Assembly (NCBI GenBank): GCA_947627345.1
Contig: CANQVS010000004.1
Coordinates: 37,609-101,608 of the forward strand
Length of the DNA: 64,000 nucleotides
Direction of reading: 5' to 3'
Source: an uncultured Clostridia bacterium
GTDB taxonomy: Bacteria > Bacillota > Clostridia > Oscillospirales > Acutalibacteraceae
Shown: positions 51 through 36,768 of the stretch, piece after piece
Layout of the letters: every line of letters begins with the position of its first letter
Numbering within the stretch: the first letter of the stretch is position 1
The notes under the pieces: generated by a model
The model's input: the letters and a program-made list of their open reading frames with translations, nothing else
Database searches by the model: none
What the model was told of the DNA's origin: nothing
Program-made: the position numbers and the translations under genes

Positions 51-155
51 CAGAACCTTACCTCTCTATCCAAAGTAAGATAGAGGCAGAAAGGTTTTTT
101 TGGGGAGATTAATTGTCAGAGAGGGACTGCAATATCTGACGAGGAGACATAAAAA
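51..155. repeat. Dispersed ~100 bp terminator-adjacent repeat, copy A
   Basis: CAGAACC..CTATCCAAAGTAAGATAGAG..GGGGAGATTAATTGTCAGA..TGACGAGGAGACATAAAAA aligns by eye with the 99 bp units at 18489-18937 and the copy at 25861-25961. Confidence 0.8.
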
Positions 156-177
156 GCCCGTGGCAAAAGCCACGGGC
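151..177 (-). terminator. Intrinsic terminator
   Basis: GCCCGTGGC-aaaa-GCCACGGGC perfect 9 bp stem; AAAAA on + is the U-tract on -. Confidence 0.85.
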
Positions 178-402
178 GAAATTATTTAGAACATTGGTCT
201 ATCCTCATATTAAATTAAAATGATGTATAAACTAATTAGAATAAATTAAATACTATAAACAAATCATGGGACTATCCCCTATCTATAAAAATTCTTAATT
301 CAAATCTATAATTAAATATTACATCGGACCAGTCTCCGTTAAACTAATTAAAATTTTTATAAACCTATGATTTAATTTTCAGCTTTGCCGTTTCCGGCTT
401 AA

Positions 403-465
403 TCAGTTAGGCGGTAAACTCCGCTTGAGGTCTTTGATAGAAATTCTGTATGGTCTTTGTAACAT
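403..465 (-). CDS. 20 aa small ORF MLQRPYRISIKDLKRSLPPN (not in the ORF track)
   Basis: GAGGAGG RBS at 474-480, ATG at 463-465, TGA at 403-405, consensus promoter immediately upstream. Confidence 0.5.
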   Translation of the reverse strand: MLQRPYRISIKDLKRSLPPN

Positions 466-497
466 CTTTAAAACCTCCTCTTTTGTTTGTTGTATAT

Positions 498-526
498 ATT
501 ATATAATAGTTTTTAGCATTTGTCAA
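498..526 (-). promoter_or_regulatory. Sigma-A consensus promoter
   Basis: TTGACA (521-526), 17 bp spacer, TATAAT (498-503) on the minus strand. Confidence 0.85.
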
Positions 527-640
527 CACTTTTATTGAATTTTTTTAAAATTTTTTTAAAGTTTAAAGGATTTGCCCCTATACGGCTCAACCGCATAGGG
601 GCGCACATTGGGGAAAATATAGAAATGATATTGGAAACAG

Positions 641-1525
641 CTATTTTATCTTAACTTTTAAGCTAAGTTTTTTACCGTTAACGGTAATTTTAATTGTTGT
701 ATTACCCTTTTTAAGTCCTTTGACTTTAATTGTTTTAGATGAGGTCTTTGAAATAATCGCAGCGTACTTTGTGTTTTTGTAATTGTTTTTAACACTCGGG
801 GCTTTACCTATGATTTTAACTCTTGCTGTTTGATTCCTTTTTACGGTAATTTTATCTTTAGAAAGCTTAGGGTTGGAGGTAACTGTAACTAAACATTTAA
901 TTTTAATACCCTTTTTATTAGACGCGGTAATTACAGCCGTACCCTTTCTAAGGGCAATCGGTGATTTTTCTTTGCCATCAAAAATTTTTACAACCTTTTT
1001 GTTTGAGCTTTTTACACTCTTGTAGTACGGCGGAAGAAAGCCGTTTGGATAAATCTCCCTGCCGGCCTTTACAGAAATTGCATTTACTCTCATATCTTTA
1101 AGATATCCGTCAATTTCCGAAAGGATTTTCTTGTTGATTTTTCCGCTCTCAAAAGCTTTTTTAATTGAGGTCAATTTCTTCCCGTCAAAAATACGGGCCT
1201 CGTTATCGTATCCGTATTCATAGTAATACTTATCAATACAGCACATACACAAAACAGAGGGATAGGCTCTGCCTTTCAGCCTATAAATAACAAGTCTGTT
1301 GCCGTCTGAAAGCTTTTTATATAAATCGACCTTAACATCATCTACAGTAATATTCTTGTATTTTTTTGCAATAAAGTTTCTAAATTTATATGGAGAAGAC
1401 GGCGCAAGCGCATTTGCTTTCTGATTTGTGATGAAAGCTTGTGAATAGCCGACCGCGAAAACAGCGGAGAATGAAATAATCAGAGAGAGGAAAATTGATA
1501 TAAATTTTTTTGAGTGTTTCATCAT
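641..1525 (-). CDS. Secreted protein with Lys-rich C-terminal tandem Ig-like (Big_2-type) modules
   Basis: Signal peptide after MKHSKK; C-terminal VKSSNKKVVKI..KGTAVITA and PKLSK..KGLKKGNTTIKITVNG pattern; start moved to the ATG after the AAAGGA RBS. Confidence 0.7.
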   Translation of the reverse strand: MMKHSKKFISIFLSLIISFSAVFAVGYSQAFITNQKANALAPSSPYKFRNFIAKKYKNITVDDVKVDLYKKLSDGNRLVIYRLKGRAYPSVLCMCCIDKYYYEYGYDNEARIFDGKKLTSIKKAFESGKINKKILSEIDGYLKDMRVNAISVKAGREIYPNGFLPPYYKSVKSSNKKVVKIFDGKEKSPIALRKGTAVITASNKKGIKIKCLVTVTSNPKLSKDKITVKRNQTARVKIIGKAPSVKNNYKNTKYAAIISKTSSKTIKVKGLKKGNTTIKITVNGKKLSLKVKIK

Positions 1526-1577
1526 ATTTACACACATCCTTTTCGCGCTCTGTTATAATCTCAATAAATTGTGACGT

Positions 1578-34371: not shown

Positions 34372-34878
34372 TCAACCAAACAGAGATTTTATAAACGCTG
34401 TTATAAAATCAGTTCCGTAAATTACTAATGCCAAAACGATGATAAAAAGCAAGGCGGTTAAAATCCTTACAAATGTACGTTTTGTGCGTGACATATCCTC
34501 AAATTCTTCCTCTGATAGGCGTTCGGGAGCTTCATCAACAATTTCCGCGCCTTCAATTTCAATCGCACCGATTCCTACGGCGACGTCATATGCCTTTTCA
34601 TAGAGCTCATATGGTACTAAAATATCAAAACTGTCAAAATCCATTCCCGTTACGACCTGCGAATTTGCGCTGACCATATGGCGTGTATAAACGCTCGGTA
34701 TACCGCTGTCGGACAATGCCGCCTGAACACGGTCGCGCTCCAAAACATCACCGCTGCAAAGATAAACGGATGTTGTTTTGTCCTCAACAGCTTTAAGAAC
34801 TTTATTTTTACATCCCGTGCAGGTGCAGTTTGTATCCCCGTCATTATAAAGTTTTTTACATTTCGGACAGTACTTCAC
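34372..34878 (-). CDS. Hypothetical membrane protein with an N-terminal Zn-ribbon and a DUF2007-like domain
   Basis: CPKC..CTGC; LSDSGIP; C-terminal TM helix. Confidence 0.6.
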   Translation of the reverse strand: MKYCPKCKKLYNDGDTNCTCTGCKNKVLKAVEDKTTSVYLCSGDVLERDRVQAALSDSGIPSVYTRHMVSANSQVVTGMDFDSFDILVPYELYEKAYDVAVGIGAIEIEGAEIVDEAPERLSEEEFEDMSRTKRTFVRILTALLFIIVLALVIYGTDFITAFIKSLFG

Positions 34879-35127
34879 AAAATAAGCCCCCTTTGCGTAA
34901 TGCTTAAATTAATGAAATTATACCAAAGTGAGCGATTTTTTTCAAGAGGATAACAAAAGACATAAACCAATGCCGGAAAGACAGCTTTTAACAAAAACTA
35001 TCTTCCCGGCATAATCCATATTAAATCGTATATCATTTTTTTACTAAACATCGGTCAAATCAAATCATTATTTCCGTACGAAATTTTTGCAGGCGTACTG
35101 CTTATCCATCTAAAATTAAGATTTTGC

Positions 35128-35700
35128 CTACATAAAAATCGGCTGATACTGTTCTCTTTTAAGCGTTTTCTCAACACATTCGGGTATCAATTCAAAATGA
35201 CCGACAAGGGACTTAGGCTTGTTCACATAATCGTCCTGACTCATAGGAACAAAATAAATATTTTTGGTATTTAAAAGCCTTCCGATATTTTGGGCTGAGG
35301 CTCCCAGTCCGTCGTTTGTTGCAACGCAGAGCAATACGGGACGGTTTATGCGAAGATGTGATTTTACAGCCATTGACACGGCGCTGTCGGTAAGACCTAA
35401 AGAAAGCTTGGCAATAGTATTTCCCGTACAGGGAGCCACAACGATTAAATCGCACATTTTCTTGGGGCCTATAGGCTCCGCGTCGCAGATTGAGCTTATT
35501 ACTTTATTTCCCGTTATGTTTTCAATTTTATCTATAAAATCCCGGGCAAGTCCAAAACGCGTGTCTGTTGACGCGGCTGTTTCGGACATTATGGGAATAA
35601 CATTATAACCGTCTGTTTTTAGCCTTTCAATTTGAGAAATTGTTTTTGAAAAGGTACAAAACGAACCGCAAACAGCATATCCTATATCCGCTTTCGCCAA
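35128..35700 (-). CDS. spoVFB: Dipicolinate synthase subunit B
   Basis: GSFCTF, APCTGNT, TNDGL; TTG start after AAGGAGG. Confidence 0.95.
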   Translation of the reverse strand: MAKADIGYAVCGSFCTFSKTISQIERLKTDGYNVIPIMSETAASTDTRFGLARDFIDKIENITGNKVISSICDAEPIGPKKMCDLIVVAPCTGNTIAKLSLGLTDSAVSMAVKSHLRINRPVLLCVATNDGLGASAQNIGRLLNTKNIYFVPMSQDDYVNKPKSLVGHFELIPECVEKTLKREQYQPIFM

Positions 35701-36539
35701 CTGTATTCCTCCTTAATGATTGTTAAGACGGTGTCTGCTATGATTTTACCCGCCGACAAAGGAGAGTATTTTCCCGGAAGCGCGGAGGCCAAAAACGCTG
35801 TGTAGCCGAGCTTGTCGGCAACTTCAAAATCCACTCCTCCCGGATAAGAGGATAAATCTATTATAAGAGTATCAAAATCGCTGTTTTCGAGAATATTTTT
35901 GTCAATAACAAGTGCGTCAGCGGTATTAAAAACTATATCGTAATCGGAAATTGATTTTATTTCGGAGGTATTTACCGCTTTGTTTCCGTCAGATTTTATA
36001 TAGGCGGAATTAACCGAGCTTCGTGTTGCGACGGTTACGTCCGCGTTAAGAGCTTTAAGCATTTTAGAGAGGATTTTTCCAATTCTTCCATATCCTATTA
36101 CAAGAATTTTTGCACCGAAAATTGTTCCCTCGTAACTTTTAACAGCCACTCCTACCGCACCTTCGGCAGTAGGAAGCGCGTTTTGTACGGCGAAGTCCTC
36201 ACGTTTTAGTAAATCAACCGCATTTACTCCTTTAAGAGAACTTGCTTTACCCATAAAAACAGGCTTTTCAGAAAGCTTTTTTATAAGTTTATCATCTATT
36301 TTTATTTCTTTCTCAGAAAAATTACAGGGGATGATATCGCCTTTAACTCCCGTAACGGGAAGAATGTAAATATCGCCAGCATTTAACGCTGTATCCAAAT
36401 CCACAAGTTCGAGCGCGCCGTAGCTTTCAAGCGAATCAAATCCCGAGAGCAAAACACGAAAGCCGTAATCGGAAAACGCCTTCGCGCAGAAAAGCTGGCG
36501 TTTATCTCCGCCTATTAAAGCTATAGTATCAAGTTTCAT
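35682..36539 (-). CDS. spoVFA: Dipicolinate synthase subunit A
   Basis: IGGDKRQ, NALPTAEGA, GYGRIG, LPGK; adjacent to dpaB. Confidence 0.93.
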   Translation of the reverse strand: MKLDTIALIGGDKRQLFCAKAFSDYGFRVLLSGFDSLESYGALELVDLDTALNAGDIYILPVTGVKGDIIPCNFSEKEIKIDDKLIKKLSEKPVFMGKASSLKGVNAVDLLKREDFAVQNALPTAEGAVGVAVKSYEGTIFGAKILVIGYGRIGKILSKMLKALNADVTVATRSSVNSAYIKSDGNKAVNTSEIKSISDYDIVFNTADALVIDKNILENSDFDTLIIDLSSYPGGVDFEVADKLGYTAFLASALPGKYSPLSAGKIIADTVLTIIKEEYSWRKRI

Positions 36540-36566
36540 ATCAAACACCTTTTTGGGATATATGAC

Positions 36567-36592
36567 ATAATATGAAATTCAACAAAAGTTGT
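36567..36592 (-). promoter_or_regulatory. Sigma-K-like promoter of dpaAB
   Basis: AC-16-CATATTAT on the minus strand; spoVFAB is sigma-K dependent in B. subtilis. Confidence 0.65.
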
Positions 36593-36651
36593 GAAAGCAA
36601 ATCAAACGTAAAAATAATTATGAAACTTCCCCGCCTGAAAAAATATAAGGA

Positions 36652-36742
36652 TAAAACCTTTAATATATACAAAACATAGGAAGATATGTTTGAAAAACAG
36701 ATTTTAAAAAGCTCTGTATTGTCTGACGCGGATATATAAAAA
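36652..36742. repeat. Terminator-adjacent repeat, copy F
   Basis: AACCTT..ATACAAAAC..TGTCTGACGCGGATATATAAAAA abutting GAGGTTGC-aaac-GCAACCTC. Confidence 0.7.
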
Positions 36743-36768
36743 GAGGTTGCAAACGCAACCTCCTTTTT
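36738..36768 (-). terminator. rny terminator
   Basis: AAAAAGAGGTTGC-aaac-GCAACCTC-CTTTTT. Confidence 0.85.

Follow-up and report, generated by a model that had tools for sequence, protein, structure and literature searches.

A clade-restricted, modular intergenic repeat with an A-run end flush against gene boundaries in an uncultured Clostridia bacterium

The window described here is a 64,000-nucleotide stretch of DNA from an uncultured Clostridia bacterium, corresponding to positions 37609-101608 of contig C4 in the source assembly (C4:37609-101608 of G000; 1.83 Mb, 40 contigs). Its intergenic regions contain a dispersed repeat, the 98-bp unit of which ends in a run of A residues that is often placed directly against a hairpin. 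An earlier note on this DNA had listed six such loci, and these proved to be real and related, as all six were recovered, all on the plus strand, by an nhmmer profile that was seeded with them and then iterated on the whole assembly. No further family copies were detected in the window with this profile. The units and the features directly beside them are listed below.

1-50, plus strand: 5' accessory module directly upstream of c1, consisting of the hairpin CTCTCTGTCTGAAAACGGATAGAGAG followed by TTTGATAGGGATTTTTCGCA
53-153, plus strand: full-length unit c1, with the end GAGGAGACATAAAAA (nhmmer model positions 1-98, 79 bits, E 3.7e-22)
156-177, no strand assigned: hairpin GCCCGTGGCAAAAGCCACGGGC directly after the c1 A-run (offset 0; folding energy -19.3 kcal/mol)
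18484-18538, plus strand: 5'-truncated unit at the left edge of the tuf array (nhmmer model positions 41-97)
18543-18637, 18642-18736, 18742-18835 and 18842-18935, plus strand: four tandem full units of the tuf array (nhmmer E 1e-9 to 5e-15)
18938-18961, no strand assigned: bidirectional terminator hairpin of tuf (terminator scan, both strands)
25863-25959, plus strand: full unit c3 (nhmmer 67 bits, E 1.7e-18)
25962-25991, no strand assigned: terminator hairpin of the minus-strand gene 26024-27082, flush with the c3 A-run (folding and terminator scan)
27390-27457, plus strand: degenerate unit c6, which lacks an A-run or hairpin end (model positions 1-80, E 0.003)
29942-30024, plus strand: 5'-truncated unit c4 (model positions 14-97, 47 bits, E 3e-12)
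30028-30057, no strand assigned: hairpin GATTCCAAAGCCGAATAGGGTTTTGGAATC after c4 and downstream of the minus-strand gene 30107-30523 (read from the sequence)
36670-36739, plus strand: decayed unit c5, placed by the earlier note at 36652-36742 (model positions 24-97, E 1.4e-4)
36743-36762, no strand assigned: rny terminator hairpin GAGGTTGCAAACGCAACCTC, flush with the c5 A-run (folding and terminator scan)

Reading of the sequence confirmed that the A-run passes straight into a hairpin at five of the window copies. These hairpins are unrelated to one another in sequence, and EF-Tu and RNase Y are confirmed as flanking genes, all as previously claimed. A terminator scan flags three of the five docked hairpins (18961-18939 and 25987-25966 on the minus strand, 36743-36762 on the plus strand). 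The tuf array has a period of 99, with 4.5 copies and 89% matches in Tandem Repeats Finder (TRF), and its A-run at 18932-37 is the minus-strand U-tract of the tuf terminator; relatives without the repeat still carry an equivalent A6 and hairpin after tuf. The accessory module at 1-50 is also present 5' of other arrays, for example at C18:6209-7194, C18:28564 and C33:9898. Directly 3' of c6, positions 27472-27532 hold an AT-rich short tandem repeat (AAGGCTATATAAT-like, period 13-16), the length of which differs in the near relative described below.

Genome-wide family and mosaic architecture

Searches of the whole source assembly with nhmmer identify 216 units, which form 85 same-strand clusters and account for ~1.1% of the genome; 126 of the units are full length. 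Since 36 of these clusters lie on the minus strand and 49 on the plus strand, the single orientation that the earlier note described as constant is true inside the window only. Most clusters are arrays of two to six units, and several are found at contig ends, indicating that the family breaks metagenome-assembled genomes (MAGs). The units are essentially all intergenic, overlapping only with spurious antisense open reading frames (ORFs) made by the arrays themselves. A protein-coding tandem repeat was also considered; no ORF of at least 90 aa runs across the window array, and the short antisense ORFs that some arrays contain are interrupted because the spacing varies.

The unit is polar, with the consensus GCAGAACCTGTCCTCCCTATCCAAAACAAGACAGAGGCAGAAACGTTTGGGGGATATGAATTGTC(C/A)GAGAGGGACTGCAATGTCTGACGTGGAGATATAAAAA and a 3' end of TGACGTGGAGATAT followed by three to eight A residues (a terminus also written TTTTTATATCTCCACGTCAGAC), while its 5' side joins variable accessory modules. 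Other repeated modules, 60-100 bp in length, lie between the units of an array, such as AAAGGTAACCTTT...GTCTACAGCA and the hairpin TCCCCCTATCTAAAGTTAGATAGGGGGA, and internal units often carry a 'linker' tail from model position 92 in place of the GGAGATATAAAAA tail. These intervening modules and variable tails indicate that the element is a mosaic in which the 98-bp unit is the most conserved module. Similarity is shared among 48 of 80 array 5' flanks, and heptamer microsatellites, for example (GAATTAA)n, often precede the arrays. Approximately 13 copies lack part of their 5' side, among them c4 and the left unit of the tuf array, and 3'-truncated copies are about equally common. The blocks conserved across species are GAAC.T.TCC, TATCCAAA, GGGGGA.A and TGACG..GA.

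The density of clusters along the genome is very uneven, C5, C16, C18 and C12 contrasting with C1-C3, with 18 on the 99-kb contig C5, 12 on the 46-kb C16 and one on the 167-kb C1. Contig C5 carries parA-parB-serS and may be near the origin.

Docking of the A-run end in the source genome

Docking classes were assigned from the bases that directly follow the A-run in each terminal unit, and 700 intergenic runs of five or more A residues outside units served as controls. The cut-offs were a hairpin within 2 nt, the stop codon of a convergent ORF of at least 60 codons within 6 nt, or a -35/-10-like promoter within 6 nt. The resulting counts are as follows.

Terminal units of the source genome (n = 72): hairpin 25, stop codon 20, promoter (-35) 6, start codon 1, other 20
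Control A5+ runs (n = 700): hairpin 87, stop codon 18, promoter 11, start codon 23, other 561

The GGAGATATAAAAA end is the consistent docking end, lying at a hairpin in 35%, a stop codon in 28% and a -35 box in 8% of terminal units, compared with 12%, 3% and 2% of controls. This corresponds to an enrichment over controls of ~2.8-fold for hairpins and ~11-fold for stop codons. The stop-docked arrays have no hairpin between the unit and the stop codon and no room for a terminator, and the linker tail itself contains the stop codon in two of them. The earlier suggestion that the element targets terminator U-tracts stands in part, as the A-run end does dock and hairpins are enriched, but terminators account for only about one-third of cases; stop codons and -35 boxes are docked alike, as are start codons and the 5' ends of tRNA and tmRNA genes in the sister lineage described below.

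In 59 of 78 clusters, the neighbouring gene beyond the A-run is encoded on the opposite strand (p ~1e-5 against one half, normal approximation; strands from crude ORF calls), and the other side is divided 41 to 37. Where the unit lies between two genes in tandem, it is antisense to them in 30 cases and sense in 11, and several convergent gene pairs have both stop codons docked, for example C12:33540/34203. Opposed neighbouring arrays, which are 55-276 bp apart, are arranged head-to-head with their A-run ends outward in eight cases and tail-to-tail in none. A replichore-polarised binding site, another possibility raised previously, does not fit these results. Clusters run against the local GC skew or gene majority in 51 cases and with it in 34, a split that indicates local rather than replichore-wide polarity; opposed arrays occur at close range, and the strong correlate of orientation is the strand of the adjacent gene. 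An outward sigma-70 promoter in the unit was rejected, as a scan and inspection of the consensus gave no convincing -35/-10 pair.

Start-codon docking in a sister lineage

The sister lineage G016 is syntenic with the source genome, with 95% identity in tuf and ~72-82% in coding DNA, and was sampled over 130 kb around hits (42 units). Eighteen of its 29 terminal units (62%) end 0-4 nt before the ATG of a gene on the same strand, and two further units closely precede RNA genes, one for a tRNA (~5 nt away) and one for the tmRNA (3 nt away). When both flanks of a G016 cluster are found on one contig of the source genome, the site there is short and empty in 21 of 23 cases. The insertions are 100-480 bp in length and lie between adjacent genes, and the empty sites hold an ordinary AGGAG or AGGTGA and ATG. 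The native Shine-Dalgarno (SD) sequence is lost in the filled sites, where the sole purine-rich motif before the ATG is the GTGGA(G/C)A and A-rich tail of the unit, suggesting that this tail may stand in for the SD sequence and its spacer. For example, proB, proA and proC overlap or abut in the source genome and each is preceded by a unit in G016. Other species contain unit+ATG or unit+SD+ATG, at the same or other genes. An A-tract is not supported as the insertion target at start codons, as the empty sites there are mostly without an A-run; this absence indicates that the A-run is part of the unit and does not represent a duplicated target.

A further layer of repeats is found around the units at G016 loci L055, L056 and L067, which contain the heptamers (GAGAACT)n, (CAGTGNN)n, (TTACCAC)n and (AAGAGTT)n. 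[quoted passage not shown]

Dynamics against a near relative

The rabbit MAG Lapin-005__bin112 (G077) is ~94% identical to the source genome. Sampled clusters with flanks found in this relative are all filled there too, with one exception, and the unit numbers at shared loci usually differ (6 in the source genome versus 1 in the relative, 5 versus 2, 4 versus 1 and 1 versus 2). An unbiased comparison of the window shows that c1, c3, c5 and c6 are present in both genomes. The c3 ortholog is ~85% identical with a flank at ~98%, the c5 ortholog is ~80% identical, and the hairpin at 156-177 is conserved beside a more diverged c1 unit. Overall, orthologous single units are ~80-88% identical and adjacent hairpins and flanks ~98%, and the fast divergence of single units argues against strong constraint on the window copies.

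The tuf locus has 4.5 units in the source genome and 0.5 in the relative, where the left truncated unit, with an identical left junction, is the single copy. Identity among the tuf units is 79-97%, compared with at most 72% to any other unit, indicating that the array grew locally from an already diverged copy. Across the genome, identity within arrays, at 78%, is only slightly above the 71% between arrays. Unit c4 is absent from the relative (29877-30024 of the window versus G077:C11:41928-42412), where ~480 bp of different DNA meets the same AAAA and hairpin, which is itself kept; this indicates that the A-run at c4 belongs to the terminator. The DNA that replaces c4 contains an antisense ORF for a putative nucleotidyltransferase (MNT-like, antitoxin-type), and its breakpoint falls exactly at the terminator A-run. 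The three contigs obtained by a look-up of exact proteins were identical over the compared intergenic region and revealed no strain-level empty site.

Host range

A sequence-only covariance model, for which 51 units from several species were used, detects the family in 12 of 121 genus genomes (~10%), and the carriers are near the top of the genus genomes when ranked by tuf identity. A BLAST search of 40 relatives with the consensus gave strong matches in G016, weak matches in G005 and G008, and no others. In a pattern scan of 185,579 species genomes, the carriers were uncultured Ruminococcus, Ruminococcaceae or Clostridia MAGs (rabbit, red deer and cattle) and UBA2854, which is G016. No family match was found in phages, plasmids or IMG/VR, and metagenomes contributed a single 1.1-kb contig. 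Rfam contained no family match for the window at the gathering threshold or for three array loci at E <= 1, giving only an unrelated T-box and a near-threshold Gut-1.

The Gut-1 similarity occurs on contig C25 of G016 (L002 1680-1818) as two sub-threshold matches (RF01706; scores of 43.5 and 37.6 bits, where the gathering score is 50). Directly 5' of a unit, they are arranged as mini-hairpins with UGAAAU spacing, the two being inverted relative to each other. Gut-1 has reportedly been described from gut metagenomes only; this clade may host it, and instead of an RNA gene the motif may represent a further repeat module. In several relatives (e.g. G070, G018, G021, G020 and G051), the match to tuf stops close to a contig end or is truncated by one, suggesting that RNA genes or repeats that break assemblies lie around tuf throughout the genus.

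RNA folding and the search for a mobiliser

Folding of 125 units on both strands with RNAalifold produced no consensus structure. Two 5' helices can be drawn, in which 62.6% of cells pair compared with 61.7% in shuffles, with no significant covariation. A 7-bp 3' hairpin, GUCCACG/CGUGGAC, is found in the G016-type subfamily only, and the major subtype of the source genome is without it. Fold z-scores are -1.4 for the source-genome consensus and +0.9 for its complement; the G016 type gives -2.0 and -1.7. Nothing in the folding or covariation supports a structured RNA, such as might be expected if the units were the read-through RNA proposed by the earlier note.

Mobilisers were sought with the reverse transcriptase (RT) domain RVT_1 (PF00078) in 26 of the 121 genus genomes and with Y1_Tnp in all 121. 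The only Y1 traces in the source genome are stop-containing IS200/IS605-type fragments at C12:43584-43883 and C10:151-384. A RAYT/IS200 partner was rejected, as Y1 is uncorrelated with the repeat and no unit lies beside the Y1 loci. An autonomous copy between distant inverted arrays was likewise rejected, since only CAP/fn3, Macro, SnoaL, GNAT, ParA/ParB and SerRS genes are located there. An autonomous partner was not found in these searches, which left DDE and other transposase families unscreened; with such families unscreened and insertion sequence (IS) copies often lost from MAGs, the absence of a mobiliser is not proven.

Other features of the window

Nested tandem repeats of 69, 138 and 276 bp occupy positions 15839-16550, inside a 554-aa ORF (15490-17154) for which "LRR" is an unchecked label of the earlier note; relatives align to these repeats at 75-83% across shifted registers. 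At positions 710-1484, 775 bp inside a 298-aa minus-strand ORF (641-1537) have no counterpart in the near relative, where the alignment closes gap-free, and this ORF has no Pfam match. Positions 47102-48238, just after glgA, contain a 1.1-kb segment that is single-copy in the source genome and absent from the near relative. Its ORFs encode a putative helix-turn-helix (XRE-type) regulator of 90 aa and a 176-aa protein whose hydrophobic N-terminal stretch is a putative secretion signal.

Interpretation

The family is probably a lineage-specific, modular, non-autonomous, non-coding repeat akin to BOX of pneumococci, BIME of enterobacteria and bacterial MITEs, and is read as selfish or neutral DNA. 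The non-autonomous element put forward in the earlier note thus becomes the best reading of the dispersed copies, as these occur many times between genes in one clade only, 21 of the 23 G016 sites are unoccupied in the source genome, and no linked transposase was found. The unusual feature is a single, precise A-run terminus that lies flush with functional boundaries, the preferred boundary differing between lineages. The A-run 3' end would be the precise outer (insertion) terminus of the element and would form the junction with host DNA. New loci would arise rarely, through a trans-acting or now-lost mobiliser or through illegitimate recombination. The compact intergenic space would then filter insertions, such that the survivors lie flush against a terminator hairpin, stop codon, -35 box or start codon. 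At such positions the A-run of the unit could be read as a terminator U-tract on the opposite strand, and, judging from the G016 sites, GGAG and the A-rich tail could replace the SD sequence and spacer; the tail would thereby happen to be, or have evolved as, a functional substitute for the displaced signal. After insertion, recombination between units would cause arrays to grow or shrink, as is seen in relatives, and isolated copies would decay.

Several observations weigh against this explanation. Current mobility is unproven, as no clean new insertion was found between the 94%-identical genomes, and the nearest relative of a unit is in the same array for only 56 of 163 arrayed units. Terminal inverted repeats (TIRs) were not found, single arrays having unlike ends (5' heptamers or modules and the 3' A-run), and target-site duplications (TSDs) were not found in the filled/empty comparisons; both absences had been noticed previously and are borne out. 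RVT_1 is absent from G000, G016, G005, G046, G070, G095, G106 and G107. Y1_Tnp is present in 62 of 121 genus genomes and shows no correlation with the repeat (6/12 carriers versus 56/109 non-carriers); no unit lies beside Y1 or RT loci, and no multicopy ORFs were found in the source genome. The blocks conserved across species could reflect a binding function, or simply recent common ancestry. The orientation of neighbouring genes rests on crude ORF calls. It is also difficult to account by selection alone for the placement of 18 of 29 G016 arrays no more than 4 nt from an ATG.

This last difficulty has led to consideration of an undescribed mobile or copy-paste element that would be guided to its sites by the edges of expression signals and not by a DNA word, with the unit as its business end. 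Such an element would import its own ribosome-binding site (RBS) or U-tract, so that the neighbouring gene would keep working. Landings are found 0-4 nt from start codons, even between abutting or overlapping genes, and at the mature 5' ends of tRNA and tmRNA; they are equally close to stop codons and terminator stems, and the preferred boundary has switched between sister lineages. This mechanistic precision is unlikely as an explanation, and retains a place because the 62% of start-flush G016 copies are poorly explained by selection alone. The same start-docked copies could instead indicate a portable 5'-leader/RBS cassette or cis-regulatory RNA, in which the unit is co-transcribed and its GGAG/GGA and A-rich tail drives or gates translation; the G016-type tail lies in the GUCCACG/CGUGGAC hairpin, with an anti-SD-like CCUCC and a GGGGGA block upstream. 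Consistent with this proposal are the 18 G016 arrays 0-4 nt before an ATG whose empty counterparts have an ordinary AGGAG or AGGTGA, the unit+ATG and unit+SD+ATG arrangements in other species, and the hairpin in the G016-type fold, where a mild pairing excess is observed at a value reached by only 7 of 500 shuffles. However, only 1 of 72 arrays abuts a start in the source genome and near relative, most being antisense to gene ends, and the hairpin is missing from the major source-genome subtype and lacks significant covariation. The downstream genes are unrelated housekeeping genes together with tRNA and tmRNA, which form no coherent regulon, and tandem arrays and fast single-copy decay are ill-suited to a regulator, leaving this cassette with a small probability. 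Transcription punctuation, in which the reverse-complement unit and spacer hairpins act as a back-up terminator, attenuator, 3'-untranslated-region stabiliser or read-through RNA (compare SPRITE and REP), is quite unlikely. Although 59 of 78 arrays face a gene 3' end, 20 of 72 abut a stop codon with no intervening terminator, and spacer modules such as TCCCCCTATCTAACTTTAGATAGGGGGA + ATTAATTTTTT resemble intrinsic terminators on the gene strand, the reverse-complement unit has no excess folding (z +0.9) and no hairpin and U-tract of its own, and the G016 units are sense-oriented inside operons, where termination would be harmful.

Arrays of sites bound by a host protein (a nucleoid, partition, replication or termination factor), possibly strand-polar, could organise the chromosome or insulate transcription units. 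The (near-)invariant cross-species blocks that do not pair, the strongly uneven density (18 clusters on C5, 12 on C16, one on C1) and the location of arrays at transcription-unit boundaries are consistent with this role, but GC skew is tracked weakly (51 to 34), opposed arrays are adjacent, the sites of G016 and the source genome differ almost completely, and the family is missing from 90% of the genus. Together with the free variation in unit number between near relatives and the decay of single units faster than their flanks, these results make such arrays improbable. Still more doubtful is a terminator-seeking retroelement or derivative resembling a short interspersed nuclear element, whose A-tail would prime on the terminator T-tract (target-primed reverse transcription) or which would insert in the manner of group IIC introns. 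The geometry is that of IIC introns, in which a hairpin and a T-run are followed by the element on the gene strand (PMC1702495), and the variable A-run, the ~13 5'-truncated copies and the 2.8-fold enrichment of hairpin docking all point in this direction, while the lack of RVT_1 in the eight carriers named above, the lack of a group II intron or other Rfam match, the similar frequency of 3'-truncated copies and the two-thirds of arrays that lie away from hairpins argue against it.

A non-autonomous repeat of this kind, at ~1% of a streamlined gut-anaerobe genome, has practical and biological implications. It spawns spurious antisense ORFs, and a profile of the family would be useful for annotating Ruminococcus-like MAGs; array-length polymorphism could serve strain typing. 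The family would illustrate the survival of a selfish repeat in a genome where free intergenic sequence is nearly absent, its ends replacing the displaced signals (a U-tract, or SD sequence and spacer). Start docking in G016 versus stop and terminator docking in the source genome provides a natural experiment on where such repeats survive, and if the docking precision comes from insertion and not selection, it would point to a new insertion mechanism.

Comparison with known systems

The pneumococcal repeats BOX, RUP and SPRITE provide precedents for modularity, strain-variable boxB arrays and enrichment downstream of coding sequences (PMC3049150). Like BOX of S. pneumoniae (boxA-boxB(n)-boxC), the present family is a modular intergenic mosaic with a tandem internal unit that varies between close relatives, reaches about a hundred or more copies per ~2-Mb genome, and is enriched downstream of coding sequences, with no mobiliser known for either (PMC3049150). 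In contrast to BOX, there are no inverted ends resembling boxA and boxC; the arrangement, module(s)+unit(n), is left open at the A-run end, and the unit is polar and twice the size of boxB. Sequence similarity is also lacking, to the extent that Rfam and other searches gave no match, the pneumococcal sequences themselves not having been compared directly. SPRITE is likewise an interspersed repeat near the 3' ends of coding sequences that is tied to terminator function (PMC3049150). It consists of a long hairpin and a U-rich tract, whereas the unit here lies beside unrelated host terminators or separate modules.

REPs are GC-rich imperfect palindromes of 20-40 nt that alternate in orientation and are associated with RAYT (Y1) transposases. 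The unit described here differs in being 98 nt in length and non-palindromic with weak self-pairing, and Y1 is degraded in the source genome and uncorrelated with the repeat. With REP/BIME elements the family shares mosaic arrays between convergent genes, within operons and at transcription-unit ends (compare the background in PMC3049150).

Bacterial MITEs (Correia/NEMIS, ERIC and RUP) are non-autonomous, multicopy, intergenic elements that can donate promoters, RBSs or processing sites (reviews: PMC10969869 and PMC2229807). The present family would be similar in these respects; unlike MITEs, no short TIRs, TA or other TSDs, or related IS were found, in searches that left out the DDE families. 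Eight head-to-head array pairs mimic long inverted ends, and most loci are single-ended. Group IIC introns also insert directly after an inverted repeat and a run of Ts (PMC1702495), a position comparable to the hairpin docking seen here in 25 of 72 arrays only. They differ in size (~2 kb versus 100 bp), and the present family has no ribozyme domains and no RT in the carriers tested. Putative mobile promoters are recognised as one upstream sequence before unrelated genes within a genome (PMC3575422), and the G016 pattern fits this description; in contrast, the unit contains no convincing sigma-70 promoter and the copies in the source genome mostly face gene ends. Taken together, the anatomy and behaviour of the repeat appear to match the known class of small interspersed mosaic repeats, of which this would be a new, clade-restricted family.

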